Below are positions 1-45,354 of a stretch of DNA of 47,310 nt, piece after piece (position 1 is the stretch's first letter; every line of letters starts with the position of its first letter). Where the stretch lies: the IMG/VR virus record IMGVR_UViG_2529292906_000014, positions 1-47,310 of that record; one strand, 5' to 3'. Made by a program: the position numbers and the translations under genes. Source of the DNA: a virus. Its lineage: Duplodnaviria > Heunggongvirae > Uroviricota > Caudoviricetes. The notes below the pieces were generated by a model, which did not search any database, was not told where the DNA came from, and was given only the letters and a program-made list of their open reading frames with translations.

Positions 1-1254
1 ATGCTGGAACAAATGGGCATTGCCGCGAAGCAAGCCTCGTATAAATTAGCGCAACTCTCCAGCCGCGAAAAAAATCGCGTGCTGGAAAAAATCGCCGATG
101 AACTGGAAGCACAAAGCGAAATCATCCTCAACGCTAACGCCCAGGATGTTGCTGACGCGCGAGCCAATGGCCTTAGCGAAGCGATGCTTGACCGTCTGGC
201 ACTGACGCCCGCACGGCTGAAAGGCATTGCCGACGATGTACGTCAGGTGTGCAACCTCGCCGATCCGGTGGGGCAGGTAATCGATGGCGGCGTACTGGAC
301 AGCGGCCTGCGTCTTGAGCGTCGTCGCGTACCGCTGGGGGTTATTGGCGTGATTTATGAAGCGCGCCCGAACGTGACGGTTGATGTCGCTTCGCTGTGCC
401 TGAAAACCGGTAATGCGGTGATCCTGCGCGGTGGCAAAGAAACGTGTCGCACTAACGCTGCAACGGTGGCGGTGATTCAGGACGCCCTGAAATCCTGCGG
501 CTTACCGGCGGGTGCCGTGCAGGCGATTGATAATCCTGACCGTGCGCTGGTCAGTGAAATGCTGCGTATGGATAAATACATCGACATGCTGATCCCGCGT
601 GGTGGCGCTGGTTTGCATAAACTGTGCCGTGAACAGTCGACAATCCCGGTGATCACAGGTGGTATAGGCGTATGCCATATTTACGTTGATGAAAGTGTAG
701 AGATCGCTGAAGCATTAAAAGTGATCGTCAACGCGAAAACTCAGCGTCCGAGCACATGTAATACGGTTGAAACGTTGCTGGTGAATAAAAACATCGCCGA
801 TAGCTTCCTGCCCGCATTAAGCAAACAAATGGCGGAAAGCGGCGTGACATTACACGCAGATGCAGCTGCACTGGCGCAGTTGCAGGCAGGCCCTGCGAAG
901 GTGGTTGCTGTTAAAGCCGAAGAGTATGACGATGAGTTTCTGTCATTAGATTTGAACGTCAAAATCGTCAGCGATCTTGACGATGCCATCGCCCATATTC
1001 GTGAACACGGCACACAACACTCCGATGCGATCCTGACCCGCGATATGCGCAACGCCCAGCGTTTTGTTAACGAAGTGGATTCGTCCGCTGTTTACGTTAA
1101 CGCCTCTACGCGTTTTACCGACGGCGGCCAGTTTGGTCTGGGTGCGGAAGTGGCGGTAAGCACACAAAAACTCCACGCGCGTGGCCCAATGGGGCTGGAA
1201 GCACTGACCACTTACAAGTGGATCGGCATTGGTGATTACACCATTCGTGCGTAA
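1..1254 (+). CDS. proA: gamma-glutamyl phosphate reductase (glutamate-5-semialdehyde dehydrogenase)
   Basis: 417-aa ORF whose translation I recognise as enterobacterial ProA; ends 115 nt upstream of thrW, the known proA-thrW arrangement. Confidence 0.95.
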
Positions 1255-1368: not shown

Positions 1369-1444
1369 GCCGATATAGCTCAGTTGGTAGAGCAGCGCAT
1401 TCGTAATGCGAAGGTCGTAGGTTCGACTCCTATTATCGGCACCA
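1369..1444 (+). tRNA. thrW: tRNA-Thr (anticodon CGU)
   Basis: 76-nt sequence GCCGATATAGCTCAGTTGGTAGAGCAGCGCATTCGTAATGCG...TTCGACTCCTATTATCGGCACCA with cloverleaf features, CGT anticodon loop and CCA end; known P22-type attachment site. Confidence 0.95.
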
Positions 1445-1458
1445 TTTAAATCAATAAG

Positions 1459-2622
1459 TTACACATCATTAGTACCTTCCTTATTTTTTGACTGGGACGA
1501 ATTTGGGACCGATGGGTTCAGGATCGAGTCTATTTGCCGTGCGTGTTCGGTAAGGTGATTAGGTGCAAGGTGAGCATATCGACGAACCATTTCGATAGAC
1601 TCCCAGCCTCCCATTTCCTGTAACACTGACAACGGGACTCCGGCTTGAACCAGCCAACTTGCCCAGGTGTGTCTCAAGTCGTGAAATCTGAAATCATCAA
1701 TACCAGCCCGTCTCAGCGCCGCTTTCCAGGCTGTGTTTGCGTCATACCGCATCTTCCTTACTGTTGGCGCTTTCGTTCCGTCTGGTTTGGTACAGCTTTC
1801 CTTGTACACAAATACCCAACGGTGATGATTCCCGATTTGTTTTTTCAAAACGCGACATGCAGTATCATTCAGCGCAACGCCAATTGCGCGGTTTGATTTA
1901 CTCTCTTCCGGGTTTATCCATGCCACCCGGCGCTGCATGTCTATTTGTTGCCATTCAAGGTTGATGATGTTCGAGCGTCTTAAGCCTGTTGCCAGTGCAA
2001 ATTCAACAACAGACTTTAATGGCTCCGGACATTCATCAATCAGCCTTTGTGCTTCATGGGGCTCCAGCCAGCGGATCCGTTTATTCTTTGGTTGAGGCAC
2101 TTTAATAATTGGTGCCTTATCCAGCATTTTCCATTCACGCTCTGCGGCTCTTAGTAGGGCCTTTATAAATGAAAGATGCGTAGCCTTCGTTGCAACGGAC
2201 GCTGGTTTTGGCGTGTATTCTGGAACAGGTTTCCCTTTTTTTCTGCATGCTTCTGCCCTGAGTCTCCAGTTTTCCTCATGACGCCGGTTCGTCATTTTCT
2301 GCATTGCTGAATAAATTTTTGATTCAGTAATGTCTCTTAGTTGCATTCCTGCGAAATGTTGAAGCCAGAATCCGATCCGGCTTTTGTCATCGTCCAGTGA
2401 TTTTTTATGTGCTTTCTCTTCAAGCCACCTGACACACGCTTCCTCGAACGTTATATCAGGTATTTCACCAAGTTTGCTGACCCGCCATGCTTCAGCCTTT
2501 AGCTTGTCATGGAGTTCTGTCGCCTGCCTTTTGTCCTTTGTTCCAAGAGACTGTTTAAATCTTTTACCGTTCGGCAATGTGAAACTGGCGTACCATATTT
2601 CACCTCTGCGGAAGAGTGACAT
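1459..2622 (-). CDS. int: tyrosine site-specific integrase, P22 Int-like
   Basis: 387-aa ORF starting [25 protein letters not shown]-terminal [10 protein letters not shown] and RRYAHL catalytic motifs; adjacent to thrW. Confidence 0.95.
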
Positions 2623-15756: not shown

Positions 15757-15849
15757 ATGAAATCCATGGATAAGTTAACAACGGGTGTCGCCTATGGCTC
15801 CTCAGCAGGTAGTGCCGGGTACTGGTTTTTACAGTTGCTCGATAAAGTC
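15757..15849 (+). pseudogene. S: pinholin S (phage 21 S-type), 5' fragment interrupted by IS
   Basis: [31 protein letters not shown] with the dual-start MKSMDK motif; reading frame runs into the IS terminal repeat at 15851. Confidence 0.8.
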
Positions 15850-15892
15850 ATGAACCGCCCCGGGTTTCCTGGAGAGTGTTTTATCTGTGAAC

Positions 15893-16783
15893 TCAGGCTG
15901 CCAGATCATCGTTTCCGATGGAAGCATAATAAGCTTTTTCTGCTTCTGCCGGAGGAGTATGGCCCAGCCTTCCCAGCAATCGTCGATTGTTATACCAGTC
16001 CACCCACGTTAGTGTGGCCAGTTCCACTTCTGCACGGTTTTTCCAGCTCTTACGGTGTATTACCTCCGCTTTGTAAAGACCATTGATGCTCTCAGCCATC
16101 GCGTTGTCATACGAGTCGCCTGTACTCCCTGTTGATGCCAGTAATCCGGCTTCTTTTAGTCGCTCCGTATAGGCCAGTGACACATACTGAGAGCCTTTAT
16201 CGCTGTGATGGATGGTGCCAGACGGACGACGGGCCCACAACGCCTGCTCCAGCGCATCCAGCACGAATGTCGTTTCCATAGACGATGAGACCCGCCACCC
16301 CACGATGTATCCGGCAAACACATCAATGATAAACGCCACATAGACGAAGCCCTGCCATGTGCTGACGTAAGTAAAATCAGCCACCCACAGCTGGTCAGGA
16401 CGTTCTGCCACGAACTGACGGTTTACGCGGTCACCTGTGGCAACGGTTTTCCGGCTGACGGTAGTGCGGACCTTTTTACCCCGGAGAACACCGGCAAGTC
16501 CCATAACCGCCATGAGGCGCGCCACTGTACATCTGGCCACCCTGATTCCTTCCCGTAACAACTGACGCCAGACTTTACGCACACCGTACACCTGATGATT
16601 TTCATCGTATACGCGCTGTATCTCTCTCTTCAGCCAGTCGTCGTGCTGCGCACGGGCACTGCGTTTATCCGGATGATGTCGCTGTTGCTGACAATGGTAA
16701 TACGTTGACGGGGCAATATGCAGTTCGCTGCATACCGGTCCGACCCCGTACTGCTCACGCAGCTTATCCAGCAGTGGCATCAT
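15893..16783 (-). CDS. IS3-family transposase OrfB (DDE integrase domain)
   Basis: 296 aa with DDE-type catalytic region (WVADFTYV...[10 protein letters not shown]...HSDKGSQY...DNAMAES); overlaps orfA at a run of A's. Confidence 0.85.
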
Positions 16784-17106
16784 TTTTTCCAGAGGCGGTC
16801 GAACTCCGCCTTCGCAAAATAAGCGGAAGCCTGGCGAAGGATATCGTTACTGCGGCGCAGTTCACGATTTTCACGTTCCAGCTCTTTCAGACGCTGACGT
16901 TCAGCGGTGGTGAGCCCACCATCACCGCCCCCGGTATCCCGCTCATGCTGGCGAACCCAGACACGCAGAGTCTCCGGCGTACAGCCAATCTTTGGGGCAA
17001 TGGAACAAATTGCCGCCCACTGTGAGTCATATTCATCCTGACTTTCCAGAACCATACGAATCGCCCGCTGACGGACTTCGGGGGAAAAACGAGTATTTTT
17101 AGTCAT
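16780..17106 (-). CDS. IS3-family transposase OrfA (HTH)
   Basis: 108 aa [22 protein letters not shown]... with leucine-zipper-like C-terminus; I recognise this as IS629-type OrfA. Confidence 0.85.
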
Positions 17107-17162
17107 CCTGTTTACCTCTTTCTCAGGGAGTTTAGTCTCCAGGATTTCCGGGGCGGTTCATC

Positions 17163-17285
17163 ACGCCCTCACAGTGGGCGGCATTAGGTGTGCTGGGTAG
17201 TCTGGTATTTGGCTTGCTGACGTATCTGACAAACCTTTATTTCAAGATTAAAGAAGACAAGCGTAAGGCGGCACGGGGAGAGTAA
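17163..17285 (+). pseudogene. S: pinholin S, 3' fragment
   Basis: Removing the IS and one TCA copy restores ...[44 protein letters not shown], a complete phage 21 S-type holin. Confidence 0.8.
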
Positions 17286-19366: not shown

Positions 19367-20655
19367 GTAACGTTTTTCTACCTAATACAATGATGGGCAC
19401 TCTATGTTACAAAAGAGTTTATGAGTTCTTCGAAGAGCCTCGCTTCTTTTCAGTTGAAAATGAAGTTAGTACACTTTTTATCGTTTACTGGATTGGTGAG
19501 GATGATGAATGTGATAGTTGGTTTATCATACCAATTTCTCCAGGGCGATTAGAGTTGATTGAAAGAAAAAGAATATGTATCCGTGATGCTTTGATTAATC
19601 AGGAGCAAAACTTTTTCTATGAAGCCCATATACCATACGATCGTACAGGCAAAGTGACTTGGCTGAGTAAAAACTTGGTTGATATATTTGAAATACCTTT
19701 GCCTGTTTCTGAACTATATATAAGTTCGGTAGTTCCAGTAATGCCAAATGGTAAACTAGGCGAGGCTATTACTTACTCAACTCATGAGATCCATTTAGAA
19801 AAAAGCTCAAAGAAAAGTGCAAAAAATTTGGTTTTAAGTCATGTGTCAAACGTATGCGACAGATTCAGCGATCTTTATGACAGAATGCTGGAGATGGCAA
19901 AGTGCAAAGATAAATTACGTCCTGTCGATGCGCGGCCTGGTTCCTTTATCATTTCTTTTAAAGCTGAGAAATTACATTCCTTTGAAGACACTTTTAAAGA
20001 ATTAAGCAGGCTGATAGAACTTAGAGCTGATATTATTCCTTTTGTTTTCGAAAAGGGTATTGATGTTCCAGCTTTGACAGATCTCTTACAATCCATAGTT
20101 GAAACCGGAACGAATATGGAACTCAAAAGCAACCAGACAGGTGAATTAGCTTTTGTTATTACAAAAGCTGGTGCTGAGTTCTATTTAAAAAAATTATCAC
20201 GTCTTTCTACCTCATTGGTTGGAGGGCATCAAATACCTCAAGCAGATGTCCTCGAGACAGTTTATAAATTAGTGGAAATTGTTTGGAGTGGCGAACCACT
20301 TACTCCTATTAATACTGGTTTGCAAGATAGACATATCTACTATTATAAGCATGCAGCTAAAGTTTTGGGATTACTTGATAGCTTTGGTAATGTCACAACG
20401 TCTGGTCAACAACTCGTACAAAGTGATGAGATGACTAGACATAAAATTGCAGCGAGAAAATTTGAAGTGAGTCATGTGGGATGGGCTTGGATAAATTGGG
20501 CCAGTGTTGAACATTTATCCCAAATTGATCCTGACAGCGCTTTAGACTTCCTATTGGAGCAATGCCACTCTTTAAGTCGTGATACTATTGAACGACGTGC
20601 TACAACTATTAAACACTGGTGCCGTGAATTGAAAAATTATTATACACCTCTGTAA
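19363..20655 (+). CDS. hypothetical protein (430 aa), AT-rich, no recognisable domain
   Basis: Long uninterrupted ORF, roughly 35% GC over its 5' end versus about 50% in flanking phage genes; hairpin plus T6 terminator right after the stop. Confidence 0.7.
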   Translation: MSNVFLPNTMMGTLCYKRVYEFFEEPRFFSVENEVSTLFIVYWIGEDDECDSWFIIPISPGRLELIERKRICIRDALINQEQNFFYEAHIPYDRTGKVTWLSKNLVDIFEIPLPVSELYISSVVPVMPNGKLGEAITYSTHEIHLEKSSKKSAKNLVLSHVSNVCDRFSDLYDRMLEMAKCKDKLRPVDARPGSFIISFKAEKLHSFEDTFKELSRLIELRADIIPFVFEKGIDVPALTDLLQSIVETGTNMELKSNQTGELAFVITKAGAEFYLKKLSRLSTSLVGGHQIPQADVLETVYKLVEIVWSGEPLTPINTGLQDRHIYYYKHAAKVLGLLDSFGNVTTSGQQLVQSDEMTRHKIAARKFEVSHVGWAWINWASVEHLSQIDPDSALDFLLEQCHSLSRDTIERRATTIKHWCRELKNYYTPL

Positions 20656-28513: not shown

Positions 28514-28911
28514 ACCGACATACACAAATCCGCCAGGTCGTACTGGCACGCCTTCGGGAACAGTGTGGAGACAGCGCCACGTTTTTTGACGGGCTTCCGG
28601 CATTTGTTGATGCGCAGGAACTGCCTGCCGTGGCGGTGTGGCTGAGTGATGCTCAGTACACCGGAAAAATGACGGATGAAGATGACTGGCAGGCTGTTCT
28701 GCATATTGCTGTCTTCATCCGGGCACAGGCACCGGATTCAGAGCTGGATATGTGGATGGAGAGCACCATTTTCCCGGCCCTGAATGATGTACCGGTACTT
28801 TCCGGACTCATCGACACCCTGATCCCACTCGGTTTTAACTATCAACGTGATAATGAGATGGCCACCTGGGCGATGGCGGAAATCACGTACCAGATCACGT
28901 ACACGAATTAA
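28498..28911 (+). CDS. U: tail terminator protein U (true start possibly 28510)
   Basis: Recognisable similarity to lambda gpU (...ATFFDG...PAVAV.L...YTG...). Confidence 0.8.
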   Translation: MADPMNRHTQIRQVVLARLREQCGDSATFFDGLPAFVDAQELPAVAVWLSDAQYTGKMTDEDDWQAVLHIAVFIRAQAPDSELDMWMESTIFPALNDVPVLSGLIDTLIPLGFNYQRDNEMATWAMAEITYQITYTN

Positions 28912-29665: not shown

Positions 29666-29685
29666 CAGGACGATACTCATCATTT

Positions 29686-29709
29686 GCCCCGGTTATCCGG
29701 GGCTTTTTT
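29686..29709 (+). terminator. intrinsic terminator after major tail gene
   Basis: GCCCCGG-ttat-CCGGGGC followed by T6. Confidence 0.7.
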
Positions 29710-29722
29710 GCAGGTGGAGAAC

Positions 29723-30112
29723 ATGATGTTTCTGAAACAGGGCACGTTTAATTATGAAAAGCAGTCCGTGGTGCTCAGTGAGCTGTCCGGGCTGCAGAGA
29801 ATTGAATATCTGGCGTTTGTTCAGCAGCGAACGGCAAAGTTTGATGCCGAAGAGGGAGAACTGCCGGAGGCTGAACGACAGATTGCTTTTCTGCGGATGG
29901 GGATGGATATCAATGCCTGGCTGGTTTCCCGCTCACTGTGGAATGCGGATCAGTCTAAGGATGTTGAGACGCTTTGCGCATCCGTTATTACAACATGGTC
30001 GTATGATGCCCTGGGAGCGGGGGCGGAGATGGTTCTGTCGCTGAGCGGTATGGGAGCCATTGAGAATGCCGGGGATTTGGAGCATGAGGTGCTGACGCCG
30101 GAAAAGTCCTGA
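29723..30112 (+). CDS. G: tail assembly chaperone G
   Basis: About 130 aa from MMFLKQGTFNYEK; followed by an overlapping -1 frame ORF as in lambda G/GT. Confidence 0.8.
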   Translation: MMFLKQGTFNYEKQSVVLSELSGLQRIEYLAFVQQRTAKFDAEEGELPEAERQIAFLRMGMDINAWLVSRSLWNADQSKDVETLCASVITTWSYDALGAGAEMVLSLSGMGAIENAGDLEHEVLTPEKS

Positions 30113-30450
30113 CGCGGGAAATGCAGTTTGTCATGCGGCTTGCCCGGGAGTTCCGGCGGGCAGACTGGCGGCGGATGCTGTCGGAAATGTCGGCCACTGA
30201 GCTTGGTGAGTGGGGCGATTATTTCCGGATGCAGAGCTTCAGTGATGTGTGGATGGATGCGCAGTTTGCCTCGCTGAAGGCATTGATCGTGAGAATGGTG
30301 TCCGGCAGCAGTGATGCTGCGGTGGCTGATTTCAGCCTTTTACCGGAAGAGAACGGGATACCGGAGCGAACGGACGAAGAACTGATGCATCTTGGGGAAG
30401 GTATTTCCGGAGGTGTGCGTTATGGACCAGATAGCCAACCTGGTCATTGA
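30088..30450 (+). CDS. T: tail assembly protein T, made as G-T fusion by -1 programmed frameshift
   Basis: -1 frame opens at 30088 inside the 3' end of G; A-rich CCGGAAAAG at 30098-30106 is the probable slip site. Confidence 0.6.
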   Translation, partial: GADAGKVLTREMQFVMRLAREFRRADWRRMLSEMSATELGEWGDYFRMQSFSDVWMDAQFASLKALIVRMVSGSSDAAVADFSLLPEENGIPERTDEELMHLGEGISGGVRYGPDSQPGH

Positions 30451-33400
30451 TTTGGGGATTGATGCGGCAGAGTTTAAAAATGAAATTCCCCGTATCAAAA
30501 ACCTTCTGAATGGTGCAGCCAGCGATGCAGAACGGTCTTCTGCCCGTATGCAGCGTTTTATGGAGCGTCAGACTCAGGCCGCCCGGCAGACAACGCAGGC
30601 GGCGTCTTCGGCTGCAACAGCCGCATCCGTCCATGCGCAGACGGTGGAGAAGAACGCACAGGCTCATGAACGCATGTCCCGCGAGGTGGAGAAAACCCGC
30701 CAGCGTATGGAGGCACTGAGCCAGAAAATGCGCGAGGAACAGGCGCAGGCCATGGCTCTGGCGGAGGCTCAGGATAAAGCAGCTGCTGCGTTTTATCGTC
30801 AGATTGACAGTGTGAAACAGGCCAGTGCGGGGCTGCAGGAATTACAGCGTATTCAGCAGCAGATCCGACAGGCCAGAAACAGTGGCGGGATTGGTCAGCA
30901 GGATTATCTGGCGCTGATTTCTGAGGTTACGGCGAAAACCCGTGTTCTTACGCAGGCTGAGGAAGAGGCTACCCGACAGAAAGTGGCGTTTATCCGTCAG
31001 CTTAAAGAGCAGGCAACCCGCCAGAATCTTTCTTCTTCTGAGTTGCTTCGTGCTAAGGCTGCCCAGCTGGGGGTAAGCAGTGCTGCAGAAGTGTATATCC
31101 GCAAAATGGAGCAGGCAGGAAAAGCCACGCATTCGCTGGGTCTGAAAAGTGCAGCGGCCCGCCAGGAGATAGGCGTTCTGATAGGTGAACTGGCCCGCGG
31201 CAATTTAGGTGCGCTGAGGGGATCCGGGATAACGCTGGCTAACCGTGCCGGATGGATAGACACACTGATGTCACCGAAAGGCATGATGCTTGGCGGGGTT
31301 ATTGGCGGTATTGCCGCGTCCGTCTATGGTCTGGGTAAAGCCTGGTATGACGGTCAGAAGGAGGGGGAAGAATTTAACCGCCAGCTGTCGCTGACGGGGC
31401 ATTATGCCGGAGTCACTGCCGGGCAGCTGTGGACGCTCAGTCGTGCTATTTCCGGGAATGGTATCACGCAACATGCTGCAGCCGGTGCGCTGGCTCAGGT
31501 GGTGGGGAGTGGTGCTTTTCGTGGAAACGATACCGGTATGGTGGCGAGAGCTGCTGCACAGATGGAGCGATCGGTTGGCCAGTCGGTCAGCGATACCATA
31601 AGTCAGTTTAAGCGGCTGAAGGATGATCCTGTAAATGCCGCGAAGGCTCTGGACAATGAGCTGCATTTTCTTACTGCCACTCAGCTTGAGCAGATACGCG
31701 TCCTTGGGGAGCAGGGGCGGTCCAGTGATGCTGCACGGATAGCCATGTCTGCACTGGCAGAGGAAACCGATCGTCGTACTGCGGATATTGATAATAACCT
31801 CAATGCGCTGGGTAGCACGCTGCAAACCTTGTCTGACTGGTGGAAGCAGTTCTGGGATGCGGCCATGAATATTGGTCGTGAAGACTCGCTGGATGAACAG
31901 ATTGCCGCTTTACAGGAGAAAGTATCGCGGGCGAAAAGACTCCCCTGGACGGCATCATCTTCTCAGGTTGAATACGATCAGCAGCGTCTTAACGATCTTC
32001 AGGAGAAAAAACGCCAGAAGGATTTGCAGGATGCAAAAGAGCAGGCAGAGCGGAATTATCAGGAGCAACAGAAACGCCGTAATGCTGAAAATGCTGCACT
32101 GAACCGGATGAATGAAACGGAAGCAGCACGGCATCAGCGTGAAATTGCGCGTATTAATGCCATGCAGTACGCCGATCAGGCTGTCAGGGATGCGGCGATA
32201 CAACGTGAAAATGAACGTTACGAGAAAGCCCTGGCATCCGGTAAGAAAAAACACGCGAAACCCGTAATGATGAGGCCACCCGGTTATTGCTGCAGTACAG
32301 TCAGCAACAGGCACAGGTGGAAGGGCAGATTGCTGCTGCAAGACAGTCAGCAGGCATTGCCACTGAAAAGATGACAGAAGCGCATAAACAGCTTCTGGCT
32401 CTGCAGCAGCGCATCAGCGATCTGGACGGGAAAAAACTGACGGCAGATGAAAAGAGTGTGCTGGCCCGTAAAGATGAACTGATTCAGGCACTGACGCTGC
32501 TGGATTTAAAACAGCAGGAGCTTCAGAAACAGACGGCACTCAACGATCTGAAGAAAAAAACAATTCAGCTGACCAGTCAACTGGCTGAAGAAGAGCGCGC
32601 TCAGCGTCAGCAACATGACCTGGATATCGCCACGGTGGGTATGGGTGATCAGCAGCGGCAGCGATATCAGGTACAACTGAGTCTTCGCCAGAAATACCAG
32701 CAACAGCTGGAGCAGTTGAGGCGGGATAGTGAGCAGAAAGGGACATATAACACGGATGACTACAGAAAGGCCGAGCAGGCGCTGACGGAGAGCCTGAACA
32801 GGCAACTGAATGAGAATCGCCGTTACTGGCAACAGCTTGAAATTGCTCAGGGTAACTGGAAAAACGGTGCCATGCGTGCATTTCAGGATTTTACCGTGGA
32901 TGCAGACAATACGGCAGGCACTGCTGAGCAGATGCTTACAGCGGCATTTAACAGTGCAGGTAATGCACTGGCAACCTTCTGTACCACCGGAAAACTGAAC
33001 TTCAAATCTTTTACCGCCTCGCTCCTTTCTGATCTGGCAAAAATCATGGCCCAGATGTCCATGATGCAGGCAGTTAAGGGGATTGGTTCGGCGTTTGGCT
33101 GGGGGAGTGCAGCAACTGCCAGTGTGACGCCCAATGCTGATGGTGGTGTTTATCAGTCTGCTGATTTGAGTCGTTACAGTGGCACGGTGGTTAACCGTCC
33201 GACGTTTTTTGCTTTTGCAAAAGGTGCAGGTGTGATGGGGGAAGCTGGGCCTGAAGCCATTCTGCCTCTGCGTCGTGGTGCTGACGGTAAGCTGGGGGTT
33301 GTGGCGGATATTGGTGGTTCAGGTATGGCGATGTTTGCCCCGCAGTACAACATTGAGATCAATAACGATGGCACGAACGGGCAGATAGGTCCGGCTGCCC

Positions 33401-33495
33401 TGAAGGTGGTTTATGACCTCGGGAAAAAAGCAGCAGCGGACTTTATGCAACAGCAGTCCCGTGATGGTGGTCTGTTCTCCGGAGGTGGACGATGA
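30422..33495 (+). pseudogene. H: tail tape measure protein (gpH-like), reading frame broken at an A6 tract near 32246-32251
   Basis: Two overlapping ORFs (30392-32374 and 32287-33495) in different frames; C-terminus ends ...INNDGTNGQIGPAALKVVYDL...DGGLFSGGGR like lambda H; one extra A in the A6 run restores a continuous coiled-coil frame. Confidence 0.75.
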
Positions 33496-40128: not shown

Positions 40129-43100
40129 ATGGCAGTAAAGATTTCAGGTGTACTGAAAGACGGCACAGGAAAACCGGTACAGAACTGCACAATCCAGCTG
40201 AAAGCAAAACGTAACAGCACCACGGTGGTGGTGAACACGCTGGCCTCAGAAAATCCGGATGAAGCCGGGCGTTACAGCATGGACGTTGAGTACGGTCAGT
40301 ACAGCGTTATTCTGTTGGTGGAAGGATTCCCGCCGTCACATGCCGGGACCATCACCGTGTATGAAGATTCCCGACCCGGTACGCTGAATGATTTTCTCGG
40401 TGCCATGACGGAGGATGATGCCCGTCCGGAGGCACTGCACCATTTTGAACTGATGGTGGAAGAGGTGGCGCGTAACGCGTCCGCGGTGGCACAGAACACG
40501 GCAGCCGCGAAGAAGTCAGCCAGCGATGCCGGCACATCAGCCCGTGAGGCGGCAACCCATGCGACTGATGCTGCAGGCTCAGCACGTGCAGCCAGCACAT
40601 CAGCCGGGCAGGCCGAGACGTCGGCTCAGTCAGCGTCTTCCAGCGCAGGAACGGCATCAACAAAGGCTACTGAAGCATCAAAAAGTGCTGCCGCTGCAGA
40701 GTCCTCAAAAAGCGCGGCGGCTACCAGTGCTGGTGCGGCGAAAACGTCAGAAACGAATGCTGCAGCGTCACAAAAATCTGCAGCCACTTCTGCATCCACC
40801 GTGACCACGAAAGCGTCAGAAGCTGCCACCTCAGCCCGGGATGCGGCGGCCTCAAAAGAGGCAGCGAAATCATCAGAAACGAGCGCCGCCTCGAGCGCCA
40901 GCAGCGCAGCTTCCTCGGCAACGGCGGCAGCAAATTCTGCGAAGGCGGCAAAAACGTCCGAGACGAACGCCAGGTCTTCTGAAACGGCAGCGGGACAGAG
41001 CGCCTCAGCTGCGGCAGGCTCAAAAACAGCGGCTGCATTATCTGCCAGTGCCGCGTCAACAAGTGCCGGGCAGGCCTCAGCCAGTGCCACCGCCGCCGGA
41101 AAATCGGCAGAAAGTGCTGCATCGTCTGCTTCAACAGCCACAACGAATGCTGGCGAAGCCGCTGTACAGGCCAGCGCAGCAGCGAAGTCTGCTTCCGCAG
41201 CGAAGACATCCGAAACGAACGCGAAAGCGTCGGAAACCCGTGCAGAATCCTCAAAAACGGCAGCCGCATCGTCCGCCAGTTCGGCAGCGTCATCGGCATC
41301 ATCTGCGTCTGCTTCAAAAGATGAGGCGACCAGACAGGCGTCAGCAGCGAAGGGTAGCGCCACGACGGCATCCACGAAGGCGACAGAGGCAGCTGGCAGT
41401 GCGACGGCAGCAGCTCAGAGCAAAACTGCTGCTGAATCCGCTGCGACCCGTGCGGAAGCTGCTGCTGATCGTGCTGAAGAGATTGCCGGTGCAGTTGCGA
41501 TGGAAGACGCAAGCCTTACAACTAAAGGTGTTGTGAAACTTAGCAGTGCTGTCGATAGCACCAGCGAATCACTGGCTGCAACTCCAAAGGCAGTTAAAGC
41601 TGCGAATGACAATGCGAATAGCCGATTGGCGAAGAATCAGAATGGCGCTGATATCCCAGACAAGGGCCGCTTCCTGAGTAACATTAATGTTTACAGCAAA
41701 GGTGAAGTGGATAAGAAAAAGGGGAAGCGAAAATACACTTTCTCTGCTCCTGCAAATGCAGTAAGCGGTAAGTGGTATCCTGTAGTCTTTCGCCGAACTG
41801 GTGGTGGCACAGATGAATTAGCCTCACGAGTGGTTATCACCACTTATTCCTCAGCTGGCGGATACGCCATGAATAATTGTGAATTTAATGGGTTTGTTAT
41901 GCCTGGCGGTTGGTCTGATCGCGGTTCATATGCGGCTGGTTTTTTCTCAATATATTCTACTGCTGAGCGAGCTATACACTCGATTATCGCAAGCGTGAAA
42001 GATGATGATTTGTGTAGTGTATTTTACGTTGAGACAAGAGCATTCCCTATCCAGATTTTTGCTGAGGAAGGATTAAATGTGATTGTTCCAACGGCTGATT
42101 ATGCAGTTGGTCAAACCACTTATAAGTGGGGGGCAACTGATCCTTTATCAGAAAGTACGAATGCACAGATAATTTTGGACTTTAAAAATGGACGAGGTTA
42201 TTACTGTTCACATCCATTTATTTCAAGTCTTTCAGGAAATGCTGCTACAGCCACGAAATTGCAGACGGCAAGATCTATCGGTGGAGTTGTTTTCGACGGT
42301 TCTGCAAATATTAACCTTCCAGGTGTAAACACTACGGGTAATCAGAACACCACTGGTAATGCTGCAACTGCTACAAAACTTCAGACGGTAAGAAAAATAT
42401 CCGGTGTTCCATTTGATGGTTCTACTGATATCACTTTAACCGCTGCGCATGTTGCCGCTTTCGCAAGAAGGGCAACAGGGTCATATGCGGATGCTGATGG
42501 TGGCGTGCCGTGGAATGCTGAATCTGGTGCTTACAATGTAACTAGAACAGGCGACAGTTATATTCTTGCCAACTTTTATACCGGAGTCGGAAGTTGCCGG
42601 ACCCTGCAGATGAAGGCGCATTACAGAAATGGTGGTCTGTTCTACCGTTCTTCAAGAGACGGTTATGGTTTTGAGGAAGGCTGGGCAGAAGTTTATACCT
42701 CGAAAAATCTTCCACCAGAAAGCTACCCAGTCGGCGCACCAATCCCGTGGCCATCAGATACCGTTCCGTCTGGTTATGCCCTGATGCAGGGGCAGACTTT
42801 TGACAAATCTGCCTACCCGAAACTTGCAGCCGCTTATCCGTCAGGCGTGATCCCTGATATGCGTGGCTGGACGATTAAGGGCAAACCCGCCAGTGGTCGT
42901 GCCGTATTGTCTCAGGAACAGGACGGCATTAAATCGCACACCCACAGCGCCAGCGCATCCAGTACGGATTTGGGGACGAAAACCACATCATCGTTTGATT
43001 ACGGCACTAAATCCACGAATAACACTGGTGCACATACCCATAGTATTAGCGGGACAGCAAATAGTGCCGGTGCGCACCAACACAAGAGTTCCGGTGCATT

Positions 43101-43416
43101 TGGTGGCACGAACACGAGCATTTTCCCTAATGGTTATACCGCGATTTCAAATCTAAGCGCGGGGATTATGAGCACAACAAGCGGTAGTGGCCAGACTCGT
43201 AATGCAGGGAAGACATCATCAGATGGTGCTCATACCCACTCGCTGTCCGGCACTGCTGCAAGCGCAGGCGCACATGCACATACTGTCGGTATTGGTGCTC
43301 ATACGCACTCCGTTGCGATTGGTTCACATGGACACACCATCACCGTTAACGCTGCTGGTAACGCGGAAAACACCGTCAAAAACATCGCATTTAACTATAT
43401 TGTGAGGCTTGCATAA
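40129..43416 (+). CDS. stf: side tail fiber protein Stf
   Basis: 1095 aa from [26 protein letters not shown]; long Ala/Ser/Thr-rich repeat region; C-terminal GAHTHS/GAHAHT His-box repeats ending [11 protein letters not shown]. Confidence 0.9.
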
Positions 43417-44000: not shown

Positions 44001-44222
44001 TCGTTTTGTGATATGCCGCAGAAACGTTGTATGAAATAACGTTCTGCGGTTAGTATATTGTAAAGCTGAGTATTGGTTTATTTGGCGATTATTATCTTCA
44101 GGAGAATAATGGAAGTTCTATGACTCAATTGTTCATAGTGTTTACATCACCGCCAATTGCTTTTAAGACTGAACGCATGAAATATGGTTTTTCGTCATGT
44201 TTTGAGTCTGCTGTTGATATTT

Positions 44223-45354
44223 CTAAAGTCGGTTTTTTTCTTCGTTTTCTCTAACTATTTTCCATGAAATACATTTTTGATTATTATTTGAATCAATTCC
44301 AATTACCTGAAGTCTTTCATCTATAATTGGCATTGTATGTATTGGTTTATTGGAGTAGATGCTTGCTTTTCTGAGCCATAGCTCTGATATCCAAATGAAG
44401 CCATAGGCATTTGTTATTTTGGCTCTGTCAGCTGCATAACGCCAAAAAATATATTTATCTGCTTGATCTTCAAATGTTGTATTGATTAAATCAATTGGAT
44501 GGAATTGTTTATCATAAAAAATTAATGTTTGAATGTGATAACCGTCCTTTAAAAAAGTCGTTTCTGCAAGCTTGGCTGTATAGTCAACTAACTCTTCTGT
44601 CGAAGTGATATTTTTAGGCTTATCTACCAGTTTTAGACGCTCTTTAATATCTTCAGGAATTATTTTATTGTCATATTGTATCATGCTAAATGACAATTTG
44701 CTTATGGAGTAATCTTTTAATTTTAAATAAGTTATTCTCCTGGCTTCATCAAATAAAGAGTCGAATGATGTTGGCGAAATCACATCGTCACCCATTGGAT
44801 TGTTTATTTGTATGCCAAGAGAGTTACAGCAGTTATACATTCTGCCATAGATTATAGCTAAGGCATGTAATAATTCGTAATCTTTTAGCGTATTAGCGAC
44901 CCATCGTCTTTCTGATTTAATAATAGATGATTCAGTTAAATATGAAGGTAATTTCTTTTGTGCAAGTCTGACTAACTTTTTATACCAATGTTTAACATAC
45001 TTTCATTTGTAATAAACTCAATGTCATTTTCTTCAATGTAAGATGAAATAAGAGTAGCCTTTGCCTCGCTATACATTTCTAAATCGCCTTGTTTTTCTAT
45101 CGTATTGCGAGAATTTTTAGCCCAAGCCATTAATGGATCATTTTTCCATTTTTCAATAACATTATTGTTATACCAAATGTCATATCCTATAATCTGGTTT
45201 TTGTTTTTTGAATAATAAATGTTACTGTTCTTGCGGTTTGGAGGAATTGATTCAAATTCAAGCGGAATAATTCAGGGTCAAAATATGTATCAATGCAGCA
45301 TTTGAGCAAGTGCGATAAATCTTTAAGTCTTCTTTCCCATGGTTTTTTAGTCAT
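44223..45354 (-). pseudogene. AT-rich cargo gene of unknown function (about 375 codons), broken by two frameshifts at A/T homopolymers
   Basis: Minus-strand coding signal continues across three frames (45354-45187, 45186-44968, 44967-44223); shifts occur at AAAAACAAAAACC and GGTATAAAAAG; about 30% GC. Confidence 0.45.

Follow-up and report, generated by a model that had tools for sequence, protein, structure and literature searches.

The broken tape measure gene of a lambdoid prophage in Escherichia coli DEC6A very probably reflects a homopolymer sequencing artefact

The H protein of phage lambda (gpH, 853 aa) ends in the lambda-type C-terminal domain described by TIGR01541 and PF09718, and its gene is preceded by the chaperone genes G and T and followed by M and L. 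Tape measure proteins encoded at the same position of the tail module are known from phages cdtI (orf13), mEp460 (gp13), Ayreon and PhiR55_1, and those of E. coli and Shigella prophages (e.g., EFY5898816.1) sit in the same place and carry the same Pfam and TIGRFAM domains. Judged from its sequence, the gene dealt with here is one of these known lambdoid tape measure genes, which are very common. The gene order at the locus is Z, U, V, G, T, tape measure, M, L, K, I, J, Lom and tail fibre, so that the tape measure gene follows the G/T chaperone pair and precedes the tail-tip genes M, L, K, I and J. The chaperone genes themselves (region 29684..30450) show a lambda-like arrangement, with the stop codon of G at 30110..30112 and T at 30121..30450 in the -1 frame; the canonical GGGAAAG slip site is absent from this region, where the sole A-rich slip candidate is CCGGAAAAG at about 30098..30106. 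Separately, a 237-nt stretch of the Aeromonas phage AP1 record (MT713136.1, 251326..251563), without annotated feature and near the end of 254 kb of sequence, is 97% identical to the E. coli tape measure gene and may represent contamination or a chimeric end.

The window, that is, the whole stretch of 47,310 nt analysed here, is 100% identical to contig AIFV01000004.1 of the E. coli DEC6A draft GCA_000249595.2. The element, a lambdoid prophage, is inserted at tRNA-Thr(CGT), adjoining proA, with the pao (yagQRST) genes past the right end. In the attachment region, tRNA-Thr(CGT) coordinates fall at 1369..1444 and 1399..1462 of the window, and a 64-bp repeat of the 3' part of the tRNA (95% identity) lies ~340-400 bp outside its right end. 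The whole prophage is therefore ~46 kb long, and the window contains almost all of it. The gene at 1..1254, for which icd had been considered, is proA, beside tRNA-Thr. Positions 40129..43416 hold a continuous 1095-aa tail fibre ORF, of which the gene calls of the DEC6A contig recover just the C-terminal 596 aa, beside an antisense 245-aa ORF. In GCA_033847405.1 the identical DNA is annotated with all 1095 aa, and this discrepancy is one of annotation, not of sequence.

The tape measure gene and its parts are as follows.

30422..33495, plus strand: tape measure gene, lambda gpH-like, whole; a single 1024-aa ORF given an A7 run
30422..32374, plus strand: N-terminal fragment, deposited as EHV63193.1 (E. 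coli DEC6A); 650 aa, with 609 native and 40 aberrant residues
32246..32251, plus strand: A6 homopolymer, site of the frame change; A7 in relatives
32371..33495, plus strand: C-terminal fragment, deposited as EHV63194.1 (E. coli DEC6A); 374 aa as annotated

A preliminary description of this DNA had reported that the gpH-like gene changes frame at an A6 run, that the upstream frame stops soon afterwards while the downstream frame opens at the run itself, and that one additional A would yield a continuous protein of about 1025 aa with a lambda-type C-terminus. All of this was borne out. Positions 32240..32254 read GGT AAG AAA AAA CAC, and the upstream frame, which starts at ATG 30422, continues past the A6 through 40 aberrant codons (HAKPVMM...ALPLKR) into a TGA at 32372..32374. 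The downstream frame is closed by a TAA (32242..32244) directly 5' of the A-run and stays open from 32245 until 33495. The gene as deposited with A6 thus has no continuous ORF, and insertion of one A restores it, in 3075 nt that encode 1024 aa plus the stop. The start codon of the C-terminal fragment and the stop codon of the N-terminal one overlap as ATGA (32371..32374), and this overlap is an accidental by-product of the frame shift.

From end to end, the repaired protein aligns collinearly and without gaps with an intact tape measure protein of 1024 aa (98.7% identity), and it is likewise collinear with the tape measure proteins of four phages (94% identity). When the DNA is aligned with four phages, the single-base gap falls exactly in the A-run, A6 versus A7. 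The repaired protein matches PF06791 (TMP_2), PF24622 (TMP_4) and PF09718 (Tape_meas_lam_C), as well as TIGR01541 (tape_meas_lam_C; E=3.6e-92), all of these matches exceeding the curated cut-offs, which agrees with the gpH-like identity proposed before. The domains are divided between the two fragments: TMP_2 (residues 228-426) falls in the N-terminal one, and TMP_4 and Tape_meas_lam_C fall in the C-terminal one, so that the break at residue 609 parts TMP_2 from TMP_4 and the lambda-type C-terminal domains.

Comparison with intact homologs, the check that the preliminary description had proposed, returned A7 and a single ORF. Every homolog examined consists of one ORF of 1018-1024 aa, and the natively separate genes named there as the counter-case did not turn up among them. 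A tape measure gene split by nature into two ORFs could have drawn on the two proteins annotated in the deposit and on the overlap of the first stop codon with the second ATG at 32371..32374. However, it conflicts with the single ORF of the homologs, and the first ORF ends in 40 residues that are translated out of frame. We give this native split virtually no credence; the homolog comparison refutes it. A protein search with the out-of-frame tail returned a sole match, an 88-aa fragment from an error-ridden Logan contig (SRR30949728) on which the tape measure gene lies in six pieces.

The distribution of the two run lengths across sequence collections is equally lopsided. All full-length phage matches (17/17) span one base more than the query, A7 having been aligned directly in 4 phages. 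The 38-mer with A7 occurs in at least 120 IMG/VR contigs and the 37-mer with A6 in none; A6 was also absent from a metagenome scan and from a scan of species-representative genomes. Among the roughly 1,800 complete E. coli records that have the segment, at most 2 contain the exact 67-mer with A6. In the listed complete-genome carrier, NZ_CP028772.1, frameshifts are flagged in seven adjacent tail genes, which marks it as an error-prone assembly. Since the other carriers of A6 are all laden with errors, the A-run is a demonstrated miscall hot spot. A6 is otherwise confined to one data set, and clone-like relatives are without it. Indeed, the exact 650-aa and 374-aa fragments are found only in the DEC6A deposit and in the Logan re-assembly of SRR094143, whereas at least 12 other contigs encode exactly the repaired 1024-aa protein. 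The SRR094143 contig, probably built from reads of the same strain, agrees with the deposit at 100% identity along 13 kb and also shows A6. Any error must therefore sit in the read consensus and not in a slip of the assembler.

The most informative comparison is with a near-identical prophage. Contig JAWXVJ010000004.1 of GCA_033847405.1 (76079-105074) matches DEC6A along ~29 kb, from position 20422 of the window to the point that corresponds to 49413; the match lies at the same chromosomal site and runs into the same pao genes. Over this length we found 0 substitutions and 4 differences, each of them a 1-nt contraction of an A or T run in DEC6A: A7 to A6 at 32246, T8 to T7 at 44233, T6 to T5 at 44977 and T7 to T6 at 45204. 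Similarly, a Logan contig of SRR6249585 is identical to DEC6A over 11.7 kb save the A. The three T-runs lie in one gene, ~12 kb downstream of the tape measure A-run.

About 44124..45354, minus strand: Ea47-like gene (PF26900, 32% GC; 410 aa in relatives), fragmented by three 1-nt T-run contractions
44233..44239, no strand assigned: T7 run in the Ea47-like gene; near-identical relatives and the inspected RefSeq records have T8
44977..44981, no strand assigned: T5 run in the Ea47-like gene; T6 in relatives
45204..45209, no strand assigned: T6 run in the Ea47-like gene; T7 in relatives

The Ea47-like region is otherwise 100% identical to the relatives, and two further near-identical prophages have the gene intact (410 aa). 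The three contractions were first seen against the closest complete genome, NZ_CP180609 (99.1% identity), relative to which the window is shorter at every 1-nt homopolymer difference. They are most likely artefacts of the same type as the tape measure A6. An independent run, ERR975176, has two of the three. Shared ancestry was considered and rejected, as the same runs are shortened in mutually conflicting combinations across unrelated noisy assemblies, a set that includes low-coverage contigs and a "complete" genome, CP163516.1, with six contractions in the Ea47-like gene. These noisy matches were selected by queries with such sequences and do not count as independent confirmation. The Ea47-like runs are recurrent miscall hot spots and not marks of descent, and it was only through the near-identical relative (GCA_033847405.1) that this question could be settled. 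The errors of NZ_CP028772.1, CP163516.1, SRR30949728 and other public assemblies look like those of unpolished long reads. As an observation in its own right, homopolymer contractions are abundant in these phage genes in several public assemblies, two of them labelled complete genomes.

A different case is position 28909, just past the stop codon of U, where the window reads A2 and both NZ_CP180609 and another relative read A3. Near-identical relatives have the state of the window, which on this comparison makes the difference a true intergenic polymorphism rather than an error.

Within the comparable region, contraction depends on run length, affecting 1/1 runs of 8 nt, 2/5 of 7 nt, 1/40 of 6 nt and 0/84 of 5 nt. 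What remains to distinguish DEC6A from near-identical sequence is, in sum, all homopolymeric, one-directional and length-dependent, as is to be anticipated of an artefact. The left 14 kb, compared with a 99.8%-identical relative, agree at 8/8 runs of 7 and 19/19 runs of 6; the assembly is hence not uniformly poor. The flanking pao genes, also considered as an error-rate control, are almost without long homopolymers and so lend no power.

Had the lesion been a real, very recent and private event, replication slippage would have cost the A7 run one A, either in DEC6A itself or in a laboratory stock of it. Cut after residue 609, the protein would lack TMP_4 and the lambda-type C-terminal domains, by which it is anchored in the tail-tip initiator; no tails would be assembled, and the prophage, already without holin, would bear a second lethal lesion. 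Lambda-type tape measure proteins determine how long the tail is, and tails are not built without them. We infer that a real break would abolish tail assembly, as anticipated from the established knowledge of lambda gpH. The holin lesion invoked in this scenario had likewise been noticed in the preliminary description, and we traced it to an insertion.

15851..17160, minus strand: IS3-family element, 1310 bp, inserted in a 71-aa class II holin gene (Phage_holin_2_1), with TCA duplication

The element is flanked by a 3-bp TCA target duplication (15848..15850 and 17161..17163), has terminal repeats TGAACCGCCCCGG, and encodes orfA (16780..17106) and orfB (15893..16783), both on the minus strand; by its ends, we take it to be IS629/IS1203-like. 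A look-up for the chimeric holin-IS ORF found none on record. With these hallmarks in the DNA, the holin lesion is real, and the insertion leaves the prophage lysis-defective, whatever the state of its tape measure gene. A bona fide inactivating lesion besides the frame break is thus present in this prophage.

Such a background could accommodate a true loss of the A, in that a prophage which is already defective is under no selection against losing its tails. A7 to A6 is, in addition, the commonest type of spontaneous frameshift, the break precedes the C-terminal domains, two assemblies (the deposit and the SRR094143 re-assembly) agree on A6, and no fault shows in the other homopolymers of the left 14 kb. 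The clustering of three of the four contractions in a single 32%-GC gene would also fit the decay of a dispensable gene. Yet within very large collections the allele belongs to a single data set, and near-identical prophages separated from DEC6A by zero substitutions over 29 kb have A7. The lesion is neither common to related strains nor accompanied by neutral substitutions, as a pseudogene would have it. A true mutation would further have had to arise with three more homopolymer contractions and without a single substitution, an improbable outcome even in a mismatch-repair mutator: E. coli lines defective in mismatch repair accumulated 5,324 small indels against 30,061 substitutions, ~15% of point mutations (PMC8510543), and at this indel share four indels in four changes have a probability of ~0.15^4 = 5e-4. 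Extended genome-wide, such a density of frameshifts would not be viable, yet it would be typical of an error-prone draft. For repair-proficient cells, the probability of four indels out of four is lower still. A set of four homopolymer contractions, free of substitutions, is what systematic undercalling would leave behind, and it does not fit natural decay. We therefore regard a real inactivation as unlikely; as to the earlier choice between real inactivation of the tail and a homopolymer error, the comparison favours the error, and the former is the less supported of the two.

If A6 were nonetheless real, the A7 tract could be a hot spot at which slippage turns tail production off in defective prophages, and partly on again through rare -1 slippage, and a phage structural gene would thus contain a phase-variable contingency tract; we deem this very improbable. 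Still more doubtful, and to our mind barely worth entertaining, is that the gene is expressed across the break, either by a -1 slip of tRNA-Lys on AAA AAA or by stuttering of RNA polymerase that adds an A, in which case the A-run would switch tail production in a programmed or phase-variable manner. A-runs are slippery sequences in E. coli, dnaX being an example, and a -1 slip after AAG AAA AAA would read ACA next and give the wild-type ...GKKKTRETR.... However, the canonical X XXY YYZ heptamer is out of phase, the zero frame being AAG AAA AAA CAC and the heptamer G AAA AAA. The 89 nt downstream fold no better than shuffled sequences (MFE -24.8 kcal/mol versus a shuffle mean of -26.0, z = +0.41), and the two-frame arrangement is not conserved, all homologs having A7 and a single ORF. 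Programmed -1 frameshifting was accordingly rejected on phase, on the absent stimulatory structure and on the single-ORF homologs. As for transcriptional slippage, six or seven As are too few for it to be efficient.

We therefore favour the reading that the frame break is a homopolymer sequencing artefact, which the comparisons with relatives make very probable. The true DEC6A prophage would then carry A7 and encode one ordinary 1024-aa lambda-H-type tape measure protein, and GCA_000249595.2 (AIFV01000004.1) would contain a one-base undercall at the A-run and the same kind of error at the three T-runs. Flow-based reads (e.g., 454), or others similarly blind to homopolymers, would under-report long A and T runs, and any assembler would reproduce the shorter run; we infer that the cause lies in the sequencing chemistry. 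Artefactual length variation of single-nucleotide repeats is a well-documented problem of sequencing (PMC4746626). The practical meaning is that in this 2012-era draft, apparent frameshifts at A/T runs of 6-8 nt need read support before they are scored as decay or pseudogenes, and the same caution applies to several public "complete" genomes. A near-identical relative is an effective control where reads are lacking. The biological weight of the case is small, the gene being a common lambdoid one in a prophage that is lysis-defective anyway.

Set against known systems, the locus shares with lambda gpH the lambda-type C-terminal domain and the gene order, with the chaperone genes G/T on the upstream side and M and L on the downstream side. 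It differs, in a comparison by domains and not by direct alignment, in that the protein here is longer (1024 aa) and has an N-terminal part matching TMP_2 (PF06791). With respect to draft and long-read homopolymer artefacts, a difference is that other long runs in the window are correct. Otherwise the likeness is close: 1-nt contractions in A/T runs of 6-8 nt, all in one direction and without substitutions, produce apparent frameshifts in otherwise intact genes, as in NZ_CP028772.1 and CP163516.1. Finally, once one A is restored, the protein shows 94-100% full-length identity to those of cdtI, mEp460, Ayreon, PhiR55_1 and the E. coli and Shigella prophage group. What sets deposited DEC6A apart from the cdtI, mEp460, Ayreon and PhiR55_1 group is an A6 in place of A7, and hence ORFs of 650 and 374 aa.
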